A stretch of DNA of 32,000 bases from Candidatus Saccharimonadota bacterium. GTDB lineage: Bacteria; Patescibacteriota; Gracilibacteria; BD1-5; UBA6164. This document shows positions 7,294 to 20,622 of this stretch, piece by piece. Under the pieces are notes generated by a model that saw only the letters and a list, made by a program, of their open reading frames with translations, was not told where the DNA came from and made no database searches. The stretch spans positions 1,230,001-1,262,000 of the forward strand of contig OZ245768.1 in the NCBI GenBank assembly GCA_965227835.1, written 5' to 3'. Each line of letters begins with the position of its first letter. The first letter of the stretch is position 1. A program made the position numbers and the translations under genes.

Positions 7294-9003
7294 CTAAAAG
7301 CTAAATTTGAATGAATGTTCTCAGTAACTGAAAAGAAATGAAACCAACATATGTATTATAAAAATAGTCCCTATTATAAGTAATACTAAAAATATATAGT
7401 TTAACCAATTTTTTCTATTTCTAATTAAAGCATATATTCATAATAAAGAAAATATTATTAATGTTATTTGAAAATATATATTAGGAATAAATCAAAATAA
7501 ATAGATTTTTCAGTATGTGTTATAAGCAACAATACTATTCATAGGAAATGTTGGAAAAATTACATACTCTCAAAATAAATCACTTATTCAAGATAAACTA
7601 TCTTTGCCTAATCTTTTTTTATCTGTAATGGCATAATTATAGTACCAAGTCAGTCAAATACATAAAACAAACATTGTATATATATAATATAATATATTTA
7701 TAATATTTCCTCTTATTTTTATTGAAAAATAAGTAAGTAATAAAAATCAAATTATTCATAATGCTAAATATACATAATATGAATAGTCAATTTTAGCAGG
7801 AAAGCCTAATCATAATTCATCAAAACTTTTTCATTCAATTTTTGATACCTCTCTATGACTTATAATTCAATTTTTAGTATATCATCTATTTTTGTCAGCT
7901 AAAATATCATAGGATACATTTGTAACCGAATCATAGTCAAATTTTACATTTAAGCTATTAGTTCAAACATATAAATTTTCTTTATCTGCTCACCATAAAC
8001 TATTTAATGCTTTAAAATCTTTAGTGTTGGCTCATTCTATAATAATATCATTATAAAATACATTATTTTGGTCTTTATAATGCATTTTACTAAGTACCTC
8101 AAATCATTTTGCTGTAACGTTTTCAACTAATTTAATTCATCTATATACAAATTTATCCAATAGTTTTGTTCATCTATATACTTTATCTCATATTGATATA
8201 TATTTAGACTTTTGTCTTTCTCAAATAAATTTAAAATTACTTACTGATATTCCATTAAACTCTCCTCAAGAACAGCTTGAATTTTTACTACATATATAGA
8301 GATTAGATGTTTTTCTCAAGAATCATTCCTTTTCTATTAAAGCACTATTTAATAGACAAAGTACTCATTTATCTGAAAAGAAACCATTTCATAAATCAGA
8401 CATTCAACTATTATTTTTGTCACAAAATCTATAAGCAAACTTTATTTTTTCTTTTCAAAAACAAAATAGGTTACCAATATTATAAAATCATTTTCCCTCA
8501 TATCTAAATCAGTTTCATGAATCATTTATTCAATCTTGAAAGTCATACACACATGTTATATTATTTGATACTTCGTAATCTGATATATTTATCTTTTTTA
8601 TGTTTAAATCAAAATCTCCCCTTTTTAAAATATCTAACTTAAAGCTTTTGTTGTCTACTTGAGATAATAATTTTATTCAAAATGTTAATCTTTCTCATAA
8701 GACTCTATATCCATCTTCTGACTTCATTGATCACTTTCATTCAGGTAGTAGAAAAGTGCCTAAGTGTCTATAAAAATTATTTTCATGTCAATAATATATA
8801 GTTATGGTAGGAGCTAATCATCAATTTAAATAACCATTATTTTTTTTAAAACTATCTGCTTTGATAATAGATGTATCTCATCATCATGTAACTAAATAAG
8901 AATCTCATATTTTGAATTCAACTATTTTATTGCTTGTTGTTGCAAAGGTATTATTTAATGGTATTAAAACCAATAAAAATATAAAAATAAAAATTTTTTT
9001 CAT
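7294..9003 (-). CDS. secreted/membrane protein with DKNYY-like repeats and a C-terminal multi-TM region
   Basis: 569 aa. Signal peptide MKKIFIFIFLLVLIPLNNTFA. Repeats include YKDQNNVFYNDIIIEGANTKDFKAL, ADKENLYVG and LADKNRGYTKNGII. The C-terminal ~150 aa are strongly hydrophobic. Confidence 0.5.
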
Positions 9004-9023
9004 ATCATTTTTATTATAAATAA

Positions 9024-9045
9024 AAGAACCATTTCTTTGGTTCTT
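9024..9045 (-). terminator. hairpin downstream of ftsZ
   Basis: AAGAACCA-tttctt-TGGTTCTT forms an 8-bp stem. On the minus strand it is followed by TTTATTTAT. Confidence 0.4.
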
Positions 9046-11929: not shown

Positions 11930-13117
11930 ATGGTAGTTTTTCTGATAATAATTTTGGTAATGAGCTTGAATTTATTTGTTTTGCATTTGTTTTGAGAGAG
12001 TTTTATCAAAAGTAGCGATAATATAAAATATGCTTATGCTACACTTCTTTTTTTGATTGAATCAATACTTATAGTTTATTTTATATGAAAGTTTTATGAT
12101 ACCCCTATAAAACAATTAAAATATTTTATACAAAAGTTATATACTGGTCAGTTGAAATGAGAAAAAATAGAGGTTTCTAGATCTGTAAATAGAGATTTAA
12201 ATAACATAAGTGATAGTATAGTTGATATACTTAAAAGGCTTAGAAATATAAAAGAAGAATTTATTCAAGGTAAAGCCATAAAATGAGAGGTAGAGTTAGC
12301 AAAAGAGATACAGTGAAGAACATTTTTAAAAAAACTTACAGAAGTTCCTTCTTTGAATGTAATAGCAAATTCTAGACCAGCATGAGAAATAGGTTGAGAT
12401 TCTTATGATATAATAAAGAATTGAGATAATTATTATATATATGTGTGAGATGCTACATGACACTGAGTTTGAGCTTGATTTATAATGATGATGGTAAATG
12501 CTCTTATAGCTTGATTTTCAAATATATATATAAAATGAAGCCAGATAATGGCTTCAGCAAATACTGTTTTAAAACCTAGAGTAAAAGCTAATCTTTTGAT
12601 GTCTGTTTTACTTTTAAGATGGAACGAGGAAGAAAAAAGGTTATTTATGACTGGAGCATGACATGAATATTTAATGGTATATAAGCAATCTAAAAATAAA
12701 TGTTATAACATAAAATCTGGTTGAGTTGCTCTTTGAATGATAAAAGATATTAGTAAACTTTTAAAAGAAAAAGAAATATCTTTTGAACCTGGAGATATTG
12801 CAGTTTTGTATAGCGATTGAATAACAGAGGCTATAAATAAACCTAAAAGAGACGGTTCAGAAAAGATGTTTTGAGAGGATAGGCTTATAAAATCTATAGA
12901 GCAGTCTCCTAATATGGAGGGTAAAAATTATAAAACTGCCAATTCAGTATACAATAATATTACTATAAATTTATCAAAATTTATGTGATATAAACCTGTT
13001 CAATTGGATGATGTTACTTTGTCTGTAATACAGTATAAACCTGAAGATTACATAAAAGAAAAAGATTTTTCAGAGAAAATACCTGATGATTTAGTTACTG
13101 AGTGGAATTGGTCTTAG
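11930..13117 (+). CDS. membrane-anchored SpoIIE/PP2C-family serine phosphatase (RsbU-like)
   Basis: 395 aa. Two N-terminal TM helices plus a linker, then GGDSYD, VGDATGHGVGAG, LYSDGITEA and DDVTLSVIQY. Confidence 0.8.
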
Positions 13118-13167
13118 TAGATATCTTGCTAAAATTGGATTTTAGTTTTAAAAAAACAAAAATAAAT

Positions 13168-13195
13168 TTGACATATATTTTTTATATATTATAAT
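13168..13195 (+). promoter_or_regulatory. near-consensus sigma70-type promoter TTGACA-N16-TATAAT
   Basis: TTGACA at 13168..13173 and TATAAT at 13190..13195. It points rightward into the IS30 left end, about 33 nt away. Confidence 0.45.
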
Positions 13196-13227
13196 CCACA
13201 TAATTCAATTTACCTGAATTAAACCCC

Positions 13228-14381
13228 GAAGTGCAATTTTTTAAATGAACTTAAAGAAGAAAATATAGCATTAAGAAATTTTTTATTTTTGAGATTATAA
13301 AAAATTTTGTTATAATTCCAAATACAACATTAAGATTGTGAAAAGTGTGCTTGATTAGGGGAAATAAATCAAAGTATTTCTCTAGGAGTATTTGCTAATA
13401 TATCGCAAATACTTTTTATTTTTTCATCACTTACATAATCAAATATAGTTCATTTAGGAAAAAATCTCCTGATAATCCTATTTAAATTCTCAATACTTCA
13501 CTTCTGCCAAGAAGAATAAGGCTCACAAAAGTAAGTATCTATTCATATATCATTTAATAAATAATGCTTAGCAAATTCCATTCAATTATCAAAAGTAACA
13601 GATTTAATTCATATATCATCTTTAACTCAAGCTATTAGATTAATTATATTTTCACTTGATTTATCTTTTATTTTAAAAATTTTAGGTAACCTAGTCTTTC
13701 TATCAACCAATGTAAGTATAGCTCATTTAAATCATTTTTTAGAAACAATTAAATCAGCTTCAATATGTCATTTTTCTTCTCTGTTATTTATTGTTTCAGG
13801 TCTATTTTTAATACTAACTCTATTTTTAATTTTCACTCTTTCTGTTTGTTGTTTTTTCTTTCTATAACCTTTATGTTTATATAATAATAGTTCTTTATAT
13901 TTATTTCACATACCAGTTTCTAGCCAAGAATATATACTTGTATGGGAGATATGTTTCTTTTTATCTGTTTGAGTATTATTCCGTTTCTTAGCAATTGTTT
14001 TTGGGGACATTTGTATTTCTGTTATTGATAGTTGTTCTATTATGAAATTTTTCATATTAGTATTCATATTTATCTTCATTGATTGAGTTTTTGTTAACCA
14101 TCGTCTTTGATATGATTTGATTTCTGCTTCTAGTGCTAAATATACTTTTTTATTGTTTCATCGTTTTTTTACTGAATTTCTGTATATCTCTCTGCTTATT
14201 GTTGATTCTGATCTTTTTAGTATTGATGCTATATCTTTTTTCTTTAATCATTTATTTAAATGAAATTCAATACTTTCTCTCTCTTGGAATATTAATTGTC
14301 AGTACATATCTTATTATATTAGAAAATAATGTTATTACCCTACGGGGAATACTATATTTTCTTCTCTTTTAATTGCACTTC
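13228..14381 (-). mobile_element. IS30-family insertion sequence (~1.15 kb)
   Basis: 11-bp terminal inverted repeat: GAAGTGCAATT at 13228..13238 and AATTGCACTTC at 14371..14381. Both ends also share the subterminal 14-mer AGAAGAAAATATAG. It encloses a single transposase ORF. Confidence 0.75.
13330..14307 (-). CDS. IS30 family DDE transposase
   Basis: 325 aa with TGA=Gly. HTH region is ERESIEFHLNKGLKKKDIASILKRSESTISREIYRN. DDE region includes GHIEADLI, FDNGMEFA and EPYSSWQKGSIENLNRIIRRFFPKG. TGG=W and TGA=G occur side by side in the conserved motif. Confidence 0.88.
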
Positions 14382-14461
14382 ATTTCTTACTTTGGGTTAC
14401 TGTAATTTAAATTGAAGAGGCCCTTAACATTTTAACAACACTACATTAGAGAGGTAAAATT

Positions 14462-15955
14462 ATGGTTATGTTGTGGATTCTTTTAGGGATAATTTGTGTT
14501 ATAGGTGTTGTGTATATCTCTATACGCAAAACTAAACATGAAAATGAAAACAAACGTTTGGGTGAGAACAGCCAATTTCCTATTCCCCCAAGAGTACGTC
14601 ATGTTCTTATAGGACTTGCTATGCTTTTTATGGGATTGGGAGCATTTAACGCAAACTTCTTTTATGCTGAACCTGGTTACATTTACCATGTTCGTACAAT
14701 AATTGGACAAGAGCGTGTGATTGATTCTGTTGGTTATAACTACTATTTTCTTGGTCGTATCAATCAATGGAAAAAGGCCATGACTGTTCAAGCTGTTTCT
14801 TTTAGTGATACAAGTGGAGATGAATCTCCTGATAGTGTAAATGCAGAAGGTGAAGGGGGAGCCCAAACTTCGGCTTCATTACCTCCTCTTTCCGTAGTTA
14901 TGCTAGATCAGGTTGACTCTAAAATATCAGCTACTACTCGTTTCCGTATTCCTAGTGATAGGGAGACTTTCCTTAGGATGGCTCATGAGTATCGCACACC
15001 TGAAAACTTACTTCGCACAGCACTGATTCCTGCTTTTAAGGAAACTTTGCAAGCTACTGGTTCTTTAATGGCTGCCGAAGAGTATTACAGTGGTCGTCGT
15101 ACTGAGTTTAATGCTGAGTTTGAGAATCAGATGCAAAATGGTATTTATCTTGTATCTCGACATCAAATAACTGTTGATGATCCCACAGCCCAAGCAAAGG
15201 CTTCTGCCGCAGCTAATCTAGGTGATGATCAAACTAACTTTGGTGAGGCAACAAAAGTTAGATGGGTTGTCAAAAAAAAGATGAGAGAAGATGGTACTTA
15301 TGAGCGTAAATCTCAAAAGTTCACTGAATATGGTATTGCTGTTATTGAAGCTCGTGTTACAGATTTGATTCCTAATTCCAAATTTGTAGAACGTATGCAG
15401 CTTAAACAACAAGCTGCTGCTGATCGTGCTATAGCTCAAGAGAAACGTGTTCAAGAAGAAGAGCAACGTTTGTTAGCAATTGCCAAAGGTGAACGCGAGG
15501 TTGCTGAAGAGCAAGCTGCTGCTAAGAAAGTTCAAATCAAACAGACTACTGAAGCTGAAACTGATAAAAGTCTTGCTCTAATTGCGGCCTCTAAGCAGTT
15601 AGAACAAGCTGAAATTGACAAGCAAACAGCTCAAATTCAGAAAGAAAAAGCTGATATTGATGCTGCGAGAATCAAGGTTTTAGCCGATGCTGATAAATAT
15701 GAGCGTGAAGCTCGTATTGCTGGTGATAATGCATTACAACAAAAATTGGATGCAGAAATTTCTATTCAACAAGTCTGGGCAGATGCTTATTCAAAAAGGC
15801 AGGTTCCAACCTATGTTTTTGGAAATGATTCTGGTCAGGGAGGAGCTCCTGTTGGTTCAGACTCGGAAGTTAAAAACTTTATGCAGCTCATGACTATAGA
15901 TGCTGCAACACGTTTGAACTACAATCGAGGTCTTGAATTTAACACTAGCAAATGA
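14462..15955 (+). CDS. SPFH/Band-7 (prohibitin/flotillin-like) membrane protein; apparently foreign and written in standard code
   Basis: 497 codons open under table 11. Two N-terminal TM helices, an SPFH-like core (VVMLDQVDSKISATTRFRIP...LLRTALIPAFKETLQATGSLMAAEEYYSGRRTEF...YGIAVIEARVTDLIP) and an Ala/Glu/Lys/Gln coiled coil. SD-like GAGAGG lies 7 nt upstream. No in-frame TGA. Ends in TGA followed by a terminator. Confidence 0.75.
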   Translation: MVMLWILLGIICVIGVVYISIRKTKHENENKRLGENSQFPIPPRVRHVLIGLAMLFMGLGAFNANFFYAEPGYIYHVRTIIGQERVIDSVGYNYYFLGRINQWKKAMTVQAVSFSDTSGDESPDSVNAEGEGGAQTSASLPPLSVVMLDQVDSKISATTRFRIPSDRETFLRMAHEYRTPENLLRTALIPAFKETLQATGSLMAAEEYYSGRRTEFNAEFENQMQNGIYLVSRHQITVDDPTAQAKASAAANLGDDQTNFGEATKVRWVVKKKMREDGTYERKSQKFTEYGIAVIEARVTDLIPNSKFVERMQLKQQAAADRAIAQEKRVQEEEQRLLAIAKGEREVAEEQAAAKKVQIKQTTEAETDKSLALIAASKQLEQAEIDKQTAQIQKEKADIDAARIKVLADADKYEREARIAGDNALQQKLDAEISIQQVWADAYSKRQVPTYVFGNDSGQGGAPVGSDSEVKNFMQLMTIDAATRLNYNRGLEFNTSK

Positions 15956-15977
15956 TTCAGAGTAAAATCTGAAGTGA

Positions 15978-16005
15978 GAGCCCCCATATGGGGGCTCTTT
16001 TTTTT
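15978..16005 (+). terminator. rho-independent terminator of the SPFH gene
   Basis: GAGCCCCC-atat-GGGGGCTC at 15978..15997, followed by eight T at 15998..16005. It begins 23 nt after the TGA. Confidence 0.85.
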
Positions 16006-16021
16006 ACCTTTAAATATATTT

Positions 16022-16777
16022 TTAGCTTTTTATACCTCTTCCTCTCTTAATCAAAAACAAAACTAATAAATACAAAGAAACGAGAAAAAATAATAATATT
16101 GATAAAGAAAATCAAACATCCACATCACTTATTCATATAAAAGAATATCTAAGTCAATTTATCATATAAAGAATAGGGTTAAATTTACTTACTTCTTGCC
16201 AAAAAGGAGATAACACAGATATAGAATAAAAAACTCAGCCTAAATATATCAAGGGGGTCATAATAAAACTAGGTATTATATTCACGTCATCAAAATTATT
16301 TGCAAAAATTCAGTTCAAAAGGCCTGCCAAAGAGAAAACTGCCGAAGTCAAAAATATAAAGAAAAACATATAAAGATAACTATAAACTTCTATATCTACT
16401 ATGAAAGATGAAAAAATAAAAACCAAAACTCAAACCATTATCCCTCTAAACATTCAAGCAATACAAAATCATATTATAATCTTGTTATAAGACATAGGAG
16501 AAACCAAAATCTCTTCCAAATTTCTAAACATTTTTCAAGCAAGAAAATTAAACGAAGTAAGAGAATAACTTCACATAATTATAGACATCATCAAAAGACC
16601 AGGAAATATAAAACTCATATAACTAACTCAACCTCATATATTTATCTGAGTTCAAAGAAATTTTCAAAATATTAAAATATATAAAATAGCTGTAATTACA
16701 GGTGGAAGCAAGGTTTGTTTCCAAATTTTCAAAAACCCTTTAGATAGTTTTAAAACAAGAGTAAAAAGATCTGTCAT
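16022..16777 (-). CDS. ABC-2 type transporter permease
   Basis: 251 aa with about 6 hydrophobic helices. Directly downstream of the ATPase gene (3-nt gap) on the same strand. Confidence 0.7.
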
Positions 16778-16780
16778 TTT

Positions 16781-17689
16781 TTACTTTATTAAACGTGTAA
16801 ACAATTGTTCAAGCCTAGAAGATTCATTTTTAAAGCTAGTTATTATAATTCAAGTATTATCAAAATCTTTTATAAGTTCATTTATAAAATATTTTCTATT
16901 TAAAGTTACTCTAATCTCATTTGCATCTAATATCTCAATTTTATATTTTTCTACTAGACTTTTCGGTAATTCTCACATTTTCTTTTTAGTATCCAAAATA
17001 ATAGTTTCTTCATCCAAGCTTTTCAAAAGTTCTTTTGTTTTCATTTGTTTTATGATTTTTCATTGACTTATAATAGCTAAGTTATCACAAAGGGCTTCAA
17101 CCTCTTCTAAATAATGGGTTGTTAAAAGTATCGTTGTTCATGTATTGTTTAGTTTTTTTAAAAACTGCCACGTGTTTTTCCTGAGCTCTACATCTATTCA
17201 TGCTGTGGGTTCATCAAGAATTAAAAGTTTTGGTTCATGTATCAAAGCCCTAACTATCATAAGCCTTCTTTTCATTCATCAAGAAAGTTGCCTTGCCTCA
17301 TTTTCTCTTTTATCCCATAATCATAACTCTTTTAAGTATTTTTCTGTTCTAATTTTAGCTCTTTTTGCTGGAATACCATAATATCATGCTTGTTCTAGAG
17401 GTATATCTTTCACTTTTGAAAACATACTAAAATTATGCTCTTGAGGTACTAAACCTATATATTTTTTAGCTTCTCTGAAATTCTTATCTATGTTTTCTCA
17501 AAATACCTTTACAATTCAACTATTTTTTCTAACTAAATCTGTTATTATTCAAATTAAAGTAGTTTTTCAGGCTCAATTATGACCCAAAAGAGCAAAAAAA
17601 TCTCATTTTATTATATCAAAACTTATTCATTTTAATATTTTTTTATCTCAATAGGTTTTTTCTAATTTTTTTATTTCTAATGCTTTCAT
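16781..17689 (-). CDS. ABC transporter ATP-binding protein
   Basis: 302 aa. Walker A GHNGAGKTT, signature LSGGMKRR, Walker B LLILDEPT, and H-loop TTHYLEE. Confidence 0.9.
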
Positions 17690-17699
17690 AATTTTTTAT

Positions 17700-18743
17700 T
17701 TATTCTTCTATTTTTAAGATTTTATCTCAAGTTATTTTAAATATATCTTTATCAATTTTTTTAAATTCTTTTCAAGCATTATTATAATGGTTCATGCTTG
17801 TATTTAAACTATTTCATAGCTTATAAAAATATTCTTCATAGGCTCAAAGGTGTCTTGCTAAATTTCATATTTGTTTTTTTATTTCTTTAGCTTGGTTTTC
17901 TATTTGTAATGCTCTAAGACCTTGCATAACTGTTTGTAGATAAGCATAAAAACTTGTTGGACTTACAATTATTACTTTTTTTTCTTTAAAAGCATATTCG
18001 ACTAAATCTATGGTATTAATATCAAGAGTACCAACTTTATTTATTAGTAGGTCATAATAAATTCATTCACTAGGAATAAACATAAATGCAAACTCCATAG
18101 TACCCTGTTCTGGTTTTATATATTTTGAAGTTTCATCTATTCTTTTTTTCAAATCTTTTCTTAATTCTCATTCATATTTTTCTTTTTCTAACTGGGTTTT
18201 TGATGCAAGTATTTTATTATAATTTTCTAAAGAAAATTTTGAATCTATGGGAATAATTTTTTCATTTATAAATATTGCGGCATCAACTCTTTCTCCAGAT
18301 TTAAATTTATATTGTAAACTATAGTTTTCTGGTGGGAGAATATTTTTTAAAACTGATTCTAGAAAATATTCTCAAAGAATTCATCTTTGTTTCGGATTTT
18401 TCAAGATACTTTCAAATCATTTCAATTGTCCTCCTATTTCTTTTATTTGATTGTTTGTTTCTTCTAAGCTGGCTAGTTTTTTGGTTATGTCTTCTATCAA
18501 TTTATTTGATTTATTAGATATATTTGAGTTAGTTTTTAAGTTTTCTAACAGGTTAGTATTTATGATTTTATTGTTTTGGCTTAGTTTTTCATCAAATATT
18601 TTTGAAAGATTAAAAATTTGATCTTGAATAAGTTTAGAAGAATTGTTACTAGAGTTTTTTTTTGTAACCAAAAAAATTGTTACTATAAGAAGGGCTGATA
18701 TTAAAAATAAAAGACTAAAAAGTAGTAATTCTTTATCCGACAT
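17700..18743 (-). CDS. rmuC: DNA recombination protein RmuC
   Basis: 347 aa. N-terminal TM helix, a coiled coil, then an RmuC-like core (RGILGEYFLE...VDAAIFINEKIIPIDSKF...FMFIPSEGIYY...IIVSPTSFYAYLQ). Confidence 0.75.
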
Positions 18744-19309: not shown

Positions 19310-19370
19310 GGTTTTTTTGTTAAAAAATATTTTTAAGGTTTTTTATAAACAATATTTTATAATCTTTTTT

Positions 19371-20495
<1,125 letters not shown>

Positions 20496-20525
20496 AATAA
20501 CAAAATTAGTATTAATTTTGTTATT
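20496..20525. repeat. perfect 13-bp inverted repeat abutting the ATPase start codon
   Basis: AATAACAAAATTA (20496..20508), loop gtat, then TAATTTTGTTATT (20513..20525). Confidence 0.6.
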
Positions 20526-20622
20526 ATGATATTATTTTTTTATAAAAAATGCAACTTTATTTTCAATTTATATTATATAAATATAAATTGTCTTCCTTTT
20601 TCAATAATCTTTTATCTTTTCA

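Follow-up and report, generated by a model that had tools for sequence, protein, structure and literature searches.

An imported SPFH gene ending in TGA in a Gracilibacterium that reads UGA as glycine

The window analysed here is a 32,000-nucleotide stretch of contig OZ245768.1 (assembly GCA_965227835.1, positions 1,230,001 to 1,262,000), taken from a Gracilibacteria-type genome of ~24% GC that uses genetic code 25. Our subject is a plus-strand gene near its middle, which encodes an SPFH/Band 7 (stomatin-prohibitin-flotillin-HflK/C) protein and ends in TGA, a codon that this host translates as glycine. An earlier note on this DNA had proposed that the gene was built for a host in which TGA terminates and was later imported, and that its frame now runs for 37 codons through the stem of a terminator and into the 3' end (16022) of a convergent permease gene. 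Its coordinates and sequences are all correct, and both the import and the course of the frame are borne out below. The gene and its 3' end consist of the following parts.

14462 to 15955, plus strand: SPFH/Band_7 gene in its donor form, with 497 codons and a TGA.
15953 to 15955, plus strand: ancestral TGA stop, now a glycine sense codon, 7 residues after a Y-[DN]-R-G motif.
15953 to 16066, plus strand: predicted code-25 extension of 37 codons, GFRVKSEVRAPIWGLFFLPLNIFLAFYTSSSLNQKQN, followed by TAA at 16064-16066.
15976 to 16005, plus strand: predicted intrinsic terminator of the imported cassette, with a 10-bp stem (7 G-C pairs), the loop ATAT and a run of eight T (T8).

The encoded protein matches Pfam PF01145 (Band_7) with 46.6 bits against a cut-off of 23.6, and PHROG 11908 over its full length (E = 2e-78). 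Like SPFH/Band 7 membrane scaffold proteins, it combines a Band_7 domain with N-terminal hydrophobic segments, here two, and a helical C-terminal half, which is long and rich in Ala, Glu and Gln. Compared with 1026 homologues, the open reading frame (ORF) is full length, keeps every family-invariant position and contains neither a frameshift nor a premature stop. Because no NCBIfam or PADLOC model matched the protein, its assignment to a defence system is impossible.

The meaning of TGA in this genome is evident from the genes around the SPFH ORF. When TGA is read as a stop, 19 ORFs in the 32 kb reach 100 codons or more, and only the SPFH ORF is longer than 181 codons. Restricting the stops to TAA and TAG reveals closely packed genes for a Mg-chelatase-like ATPase, trigger factor, FtsZ, FtsA, HisRS, TrmD, ribosomal protein L1 and others. 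In the 27 native ORFs, TGA makes up 393 of 8622 codons (4.56%) and 69% of glycine codons, and those that end inside the window all stop at TAA (n = 18) or TAG (n = 8). When FtsZ is aligned with its B. subtilis counterpart, 24 of its 27 TGA positions, including those of the GGGTGTG signature, fall on glycine and none on tryptophan, and the Walker A motif GHNxAxKT is also consistent with glycine. This alignment rules out code 4, in which TGA encodes tryptophan. The host reads UGA as glycine (code 25), and the same reading in the earlier note is thus backed by codon usage and by FtsZ alike. Independently, UGA as glycine has been established by proteomics (PMC4032931), and prfB is missing in all BD1-5/Gracilibacteria genomes (PMC6851277). 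The 32-kb window holds no tRNA gene, no Rfam match and, among its genes, no release-factor gene. Placement in the Gracilibacteria is by the named orthologues of one protein, the ABC-2 permease encoded next to the SPFH gene, and not by a marker-gene tree; the nearest of these orthologues (56-69% identity) nearly all belong to Candidatus Gracilibacteria bacterium, and one at 66% is labelled Candidatus Peribacteria.

Two side observations concern the use of this code. No gene in the window is denser in TGA than a minus-strand gene for a DKNYY-family membrane protein (7294-9045), with 42 of 584 codons (7.2%). Three proteins of the public protein collection (P0001, P0124 and P0244) carry tryptophan at TGA sites, as in ...NTSKWFRVK..., and were therefore called with code 4 instead of 25, which makes ~4.6% of their residues wrong. 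Such calling depresses apparent identity, so that truly identical proteins score 94-96%; as a practical flag, wrong (Trp) residues are to be expected in this organism's entries.

The SPFH ORF differs from the native genes on each of these measures. None of its 29 glycine codons is TGA, compared to 69% in native genes (P about 2e-15), CGT accounts for 58% of its arginine codons compared to 1%, and its GC content is 0.395 compared to about 0.24. The step in GC from 0.24 to about 0.40 spans about 14500 to 16000 and so matches the ORF and its terminator. That this is the only gene ending in TGA, as the earlier note stressed, is trivially true under code 25; the observation becomes informative once it is restated as the sole ORF longer than 181 codons that has a TGA stop and not one TGA glycine codon, which is far beyond chance. 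Moreover, all 31 of the aligned homologues end 5-14 residues past the conserved Y-[DN]-R-G motif. Because homologues end at the same place, the TGA in AGC AAA TGA (15947-15955) is the ancestral stop in its ancestral position. Taken together, composition, codon usage, the TGA at the family's C-terminus, an empty site in a relative of 97% identity and a phage-clade phylogeny (both described below) establish that the gene is of foreign, standard-code origin.

The site of insertion is defined by comparison with this relative, a metagenome contig (L013) that shares 96-97% nucleotide identity with the window over about 14 kb and is collinear with it on both flanks.

13146 to 16029, no strand: strain-specific insertion relative to the empty site, delimited by BLAST breakpoints; homology probably fades at ~13158 and ~16012.
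16022 to 16780, minus strand: native ABC-2 permease gene with 14 TGA codons (Pfam PF01061, E = 2.7e-32) and Gracilibacteria orthologues.

In place of the insertion, L013 has about 40 bp between the SpoIIE-family gene and the ABC-2 permease gene (60 bp when measured from one gene call to the next), and this spacer is a short AT-rich hairpin. Because the site is empty in L013, the ~2.9 kb found in the window, which contain a promoter segment, an IS30 element, a leader, the SPFH ORF and the terminator, represent a recent insertion, younger on this comparison than about 3% sequence divergence. The neighbours of the cassette are cellular (SpoIIE-family, ABC transporter and FtsA/FtsZ genes), with no phage genes adjacent.

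Further differences from L013 were seen in this region. The native AT-rich hairpin (AACAAG...CTTGTT; window 16000-16030 against the reverse complement of L013 9969-10008) was destroyed by the insertion, and beside the junction the last two permease codons and stop read KS-TAA in the window and RS-TAG in L013. A second insertion relative to L013 lies at 19349-20622, where about 125 bp occupies the site in L013. Its AAA_14/DUF4143 ATPase gene (19371-20531, minus strand) contains 16 TGA codons, and this insertion, unlike the SPFH cassette, therefore came from a code-25 source.

Upstream of the SPFH gene, an insertion sequence (IS) now separates the ORF from the promoter-like site of the cassette.

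13168 to 13195, plus strand: sigma-70 consensus promoter TTGACA-16-TATAAT, in an insertion-specific segment outside the IS and absent from the empty site of L013.
13210 to 13212, no strand: left target-site duplication TTA, 3 bp; a chance match has a probability of about 3%, estimated from base frequencies.
13213 to 14396, minus strand: IS30-family insertion sequence of 1184 bp; transposase gene at 13330-14307 with 14 TGA (Gly) codons.
14397 to 14399, no strand: right target-site duplication TTA, 3 bp, a direct repeat of the left copy.
14400 to 14461, plus strand: residual 5' leader of the cassette, with AGAGAGG as ribosome-binding site, spaced 6 nt from the start codon (ATG, 14462), as read from the sequence.

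Against Pfam, the transposase scores above the cut-off with HTH_38 (35.7 bits) and below it with rve (25.0 bits, cut-off 32.6), and its homologues are named IS30 family transposase by their sources. The terminal inverted repeats of the element, CCTGAATTAAACCCCGAAGTGCAATT and CCCAAAGTAAGAAATGAAGTGCAATT, match at 19 of 26 positions, and its ends fall where conservation with a related IS (L028) stops. Such repeats, the 3-bp duplication and the length of 1184 bp are as expected of IS30-family elements, which duplicate 2-3 bp of target and measure about 1-1.25 kb. L013 retains, at 305-487, a 183-bp remnant of the transposase-proximal end that is 98.9% identical to window 14214-14396 and stops at the same base; this IS family is therefore common to the lineage, and active or decaying there. 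A scan of metagenome contigs with GAAGTGCAATT-N(5-16)-AGAAGAAAATATAG for more copies of the IS ends returned five unrelated chance matches (37-43% GC) with no other similarity. Many homologous transposases are found on contigs of 1.1-1.2 kb, as expected of collapsed repeats.

Because a native, TGA-coded IS with its target duplication lies inside the cassette, the cassette was already resident in a code-25 genome at the time of transposition. We considered whether the IS had carried the gene in as cargo and rejected this, since its ends and the duplication describe a simple insertion into pre-existing cassette DNA and a single IS copy is present at the locus; the IS may still have played an indirect part. 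While right about the import and the glycine reading, the earlier note had not seen this element between promoter and ORF. The site at 13168-13195 is the sole 12/12 sigma-70 match in 32 kb, is oriented towards the SPFH gene, and has counterparts at a similar upstream distance in phage homologues, and we infer that it was the original promoter of the cassette. If the IS and one TTA are taken out, the promoter comes to lie directly before a leader of ~80 nt with its AGAGAGG ribosome-binding site, and the ORF and its terminator follow, which is the same architecture as in the phage homologues. At present the gene lies 1.27 kb from this promoter. Transcription from 13168-13195 would now cross the transposase gene in antisense on its way to the SPFH ORF, and could also repress the transposase.

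Among 5.8 billion proteins, the only identical match to the SPFH protein is the same gene on the 1,489,121-bp contig, and the next best match is 73% identical. In a neighbour-joining tree, the protein nests in a clade (P0002-P0018, 65-73% amino acid identity) whose members with usable context sit in phage-like contigs; the long contigs of the clade are an IMG/VR viral contig of 75.7 kb, L002 and L004. L001, L002 and L004 contain dozens of small ORFs in a shared orientation, an RNA ligase and a conserved synteny of nucleotidyltransferase and SPFH genes, and the related phage contigs carry 7-14 tRNA genes. These contigs use the standard code, with TGA ending 7-8 of ~30 genes (about 25% of stops) and never appearing in frame. 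Their SPFH genes, which encode the nearest homologues (67-73% amino acid identity), each have a promoter-like site, a strong ribosome-binding site and a terminator of their own, and stop at TAA or TAG, often in tandem. More distant SPFH homologues (35-41% identity) occur in cultured large myoviruses, and bacterial homologues, from Alcanivorax and other marine Gammaproteobacteria, reach at most about 60-63% identity. The source thus appears to be of phage type, with its closest relatives in large standard-code phages. The earlier note had suggested looking in related genomes for homologous imports with TGA changed to TAA or TAG; no such repaired copy was found, nor any other copy above 73% identity among the 5.8 billion proteins.

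One homologue of this family, 58% identical, is found on a 6.5-kb contig (L005, JAUVJK010000048.1) binned as Candidatus Moraniibacteriota. Given the family's phage association, this contig may be a mis-binned phage fragment or reflect another transfer into a genome of the CPR.

The stem of the predicted terminator spans 15976-15999, beginning 20 nt after the TGA, with GAGCCCCCatatGGGGGCTC starting at 15978 (23 nt after the TGA) and the T8 run occupying 15998-16005. The fold of 15953-16012 has a free energy of -26.4 kcal/mol (z = -5.4), which none of 200 shuffles equalled. No other terminator-like site is present in 13000-18000, and the 7 found elsewhere in the window each have at most 4 G-C pairs. 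Phage homologue cassettes likewise have a terminator directly 3' of the gene. On these grounds the hairpin and its U-tract are predicted to act as an intrinsic terminator. On the other strand, the permease stop is followed after 22 nt by this same G+C-rich palindromic hairpin, which may also terminate the permease operon, though the minus strand has no good U-tract.

Under code 25, the next usable in-frame stop lies 111 nt downstream of the TGA, beyond this terminator. The full extension, which would include the stretch APIWGLFFLPLNIFLAFYTSSSLNQK, overlaps the convergent permease ORF by 45 nt in antisense. The public protein set already contains the 534-aa extended product, with W at the TGA (P0001). 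In length the extension is not unusual, as at least 37 codons precede a TAA or TAG at about 24% of random starts and frames in the window.

From these observations we consider it probable that the locus holds a recent, standard-code cassette of the moron type in a code-25 Gracilibacterium, whose stop is read as glycine and which is a poorly or non-productively expressed passenger. More specifically, a self-contained cassette would recently have entered the terminator-containing spacer between the SpoIIE-family and ABC-2 permease genes, bringing with it a consensus promoter and leader, the SPFH gene of 497 codons with its TGA stop, and a strong terminator. With UGA as the host's main glycine codon, the stop of the cassette gene would be read as glycine. 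Intrinsic terminators free the RNA 7-9 nt into the U-tract, and release would therefore be expected near 16004-16006, which leaves 58-60 nt to the first usable stop (TAA 16064). Because the terminator lies upstream of this TAA, most terminated transcripts would be non-stop mRNAs. On these, ribosomes would be expected to stall at the 3' end after some 17 further residues, GFRVKSEVRAPIWGLFF. In bacteria, non-stop stalling is normally resolved by tmRNA-SmpB through tagging and proteolysis, and here too the stalled ribosomes would be rescued and the product tagged and degraded. The 534-aa protein would be made from terminator read-through transcripts only. A ribosome following close behind RNA polymerase could, however, melt the hairpin, giving the 534-aa product along with antisense transcription into the permease/ATPase operon. 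The earlier note had foreseen three outcomes for the protein, a new anchor, impairment or lack of expression; it saw that the frame crosses the terminator and missed the outcome of non-stop mRNA and ribosome rescue. We searched the literature on tmRNA in Gracilibacteria, and on non-stop mRNAs arising from terminators past read-through stops, and found nothing usable. As the 1.18-kb IS also lies between promoter and gene, a poorly or non-productively expressed passenger is the most likely state of the gene, rather than a protein with a useful anchor.

Several points weigh against this interpretation. The account as a whole is drawn from sequence, with its expression side predicted, and the tRNA-Gly(UCA), the tmRNA/SmpB system and the absence of RF2 are taken from the literature and general knowledge. 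If translating ribosomes suppressed termination, the 534-aa product and antisense read-through could become dominant. The ORF is intact and its branch in the tree is not lengthened, which fits a very recent arrival and a retained function alike. On the plus strand, no terminator-like site separates promoter and ORF; transcripts begun at 13168-13195 could therefore cross the IS and reach the gene, and a promoter-like site TTAACA-17-TAAAAT at 14432-14460 could drive some transcription. The latter site overlaps the SPFH ribosome-binding site, and a start ~7 nt downstream of it would fall near a second ATG (14468), which makes a leaderless mRNA conceivable. Finally, with the best homologue at just 73% identity, the direct donor is unsampled and may even have been a bacterium of that clade.

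Another possibility, which we regard as unlikely though worth serious attention, is that the gene is transcriptionally silent, a dead-on-arrival import being dismantled by insertion sequences, and that the fate of its stop codon is therefore moot. The IS30-family element, marked by its TTA duplication, does lie between the sole perfect promoter and the ORF. A 15-member transposase cluster maps to the 1.49-Mb contig of the same genome, and these at least 15 transposase variants indicate an active IS. A close relative also lives without the gene. The plus strand across the IS, with nothing resembling a terminator to halt read-through from 13168-13195, the promoter-like site immediately before the ORF, and an ORF without frameshift or premature stop all count against complete silence.

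Conversely, the 534-aa protein might be the main, functional product, with IWGLFFLPLNIFLAFY serving as a new C-terminal membrane anchor, as the earlier note had considered; we judge this improbable. The frame is open to the TAA at 16064-16066, the ORF is unbroken and conserves each invariant position of the family, and translation across the hairpin could in principle weaken termination. The tail is also somewhat hydrophobic on the Kyte-Doolittle scale, with a 16-residue maximum of 1.84 and a 19-residue maximum of 1.62. Of the stop-free 37-codon stretches in the window, however, about 18% are just as hydrophobic, and IWGLFFLPLNIFLAFY is just 16 residues long and includes Pro and Asn. Because T-rich terminator and intergenic DNA yields Phe, Leu and Ile codons, the hydrophobic tail is a by-product of composition, borderline in strength and no evidence of an anchor. 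The predicted C-terminal hydrophobic extension also sets this protein apart from other SPFH family members: among the 31 aligned homologues, none has a hydrophobic C-terminal tail and none has tryptophan at glycine columns. A functional anchor would further have to be made in spite of a strong terminator inside the extension and an IS between gene and promoter, and the absence of the gene from the 97% identical relative leaves no sign of selection on it.

A third alternative holds that the cassette came from a phage or mobile element that is compatible with code 11 and routinely replicates in Gracilibacteria, as has been proposed for such phages (PMC10746230), so that its genes are adapted to both codes and not mis-terminated. 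Predicted Gracilibacteria phages without in-frame TGA have been described (PMC10746230), and the SPFH clade is itself phage-borne. Those phages, however, have close backup stops, whereas here the next stop is 37 codons away and past the terminator. In the related phage contigs, TGA serves at about 25% of stops, and read-through of their TGA-terminated genes (n = 22) would add a median of 14 residues (range 1-208) and at least 37 codons in 4. Gracilibacteria prophages were all found to use code 25 (Liu et al., PMC10746230), and no other phage genes flank the cassette. We therefore hold a dual-code origin to be quite improbable.

An assembly chimera or contamination, with a standard-code fragment mis-joined into a Gracilibacteria contig, would account for the abrupt change in GC and codon usage limited to one gene, but we reject it as barely conceivable, because a multi-copy, TGA-coded native IS with its target-site duplication lies within the cassette, while collinearity with L013 on both sides reaches almost to the inserted DNA, stopping only a few bases short of it, and the contig extends over 1.49 Mb.

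The probable passenger cassette can be compared with several known systems. Liu et al. (2023, mBio; PMC10746230) reported predicted Gracilibacteria/Absconditabacteria phages without in-frame TGA and argued that their TGA stops are harmless, being read through to close backup TAA or TAG codons; they also found integrated prophages all to use code 25. The SPFH cassette resembles these phages in having a TGA-free standard-code ORF in a host where UGA is glycine. Unlike them, it is a single un-ameliorated chromosomal cassette and not a phage genome, its backup stop lies 37 codons off and beyond the gene's own terminator, which creates a non-stop problem, and it is split by a native IS. The earlier note presented the locus as a direct example of what becomes of an imported stop after reassignment; the example holds, and it is less novel than suggested, since the principle is already contained in that study.

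In architecture, the cassette also recalls phage morons, a concept of Juhala and Hendrix for autonomous promoter-ORF-terminator units in phage genomes. The reconstructed cassette and its phage homologues likewise consist of a promoter-like element, a single ORF and a terminator-like element; unlike a moron, the cassette lies outside any prophage, alone between two housekeeping genes, and in a different genetic code. By its sequence, it is moron-like in architecture and origin, and not a moron in situ. Engineered recoded hosts, such as RF1-deleted or codon-swapped E. coli, are barriers to horizontal transfer, and that work is experimental and mostly concerned with UAG. As in those hosts, the incoming gene would be mis-terminated at a reassigned stop, with extension, stalling and rescue, and lower fitness of the element as the consequences; the present case, by contrast, arose naturally, concerns UGA read as glycine and is deduced from sequence only. 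The locus is thus a natural example of a known consequence of genetic-code change, and involves no new mechanism.

That the reassignment of a stop codon may impede gene flow and infection by phages has often been proposed, and natural, datable examples of standard-code genes observed shortly after their entry into a recoded genome are rare. This locus unites an empty site in a relative of 97% identity as control, an un-ameliorated gene that keeps its ancestral TGA, a terminator within the read-through frame and a native IS in the cassette. The questions it poses are whether UGA read-through is complete, whether a terminator within a translated region works, and whether ribosome rescue disposes of the product. 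More speculatively, and with distinctly less confidence than in the passenger interpretation itself, the locus may be a snapshot of a genetic-code firewall, in which a moron entered the recoded genome from a large phage, one belonging to the standard-code (probably gammaproteobacterial) host or prey of the Gracilibacterium, and has been neutralised twice, by non-stop mRNAs and by an IS that uncoupled its promoter. If this were true, the donor clade would be a clue to the host of this uncultured organism.

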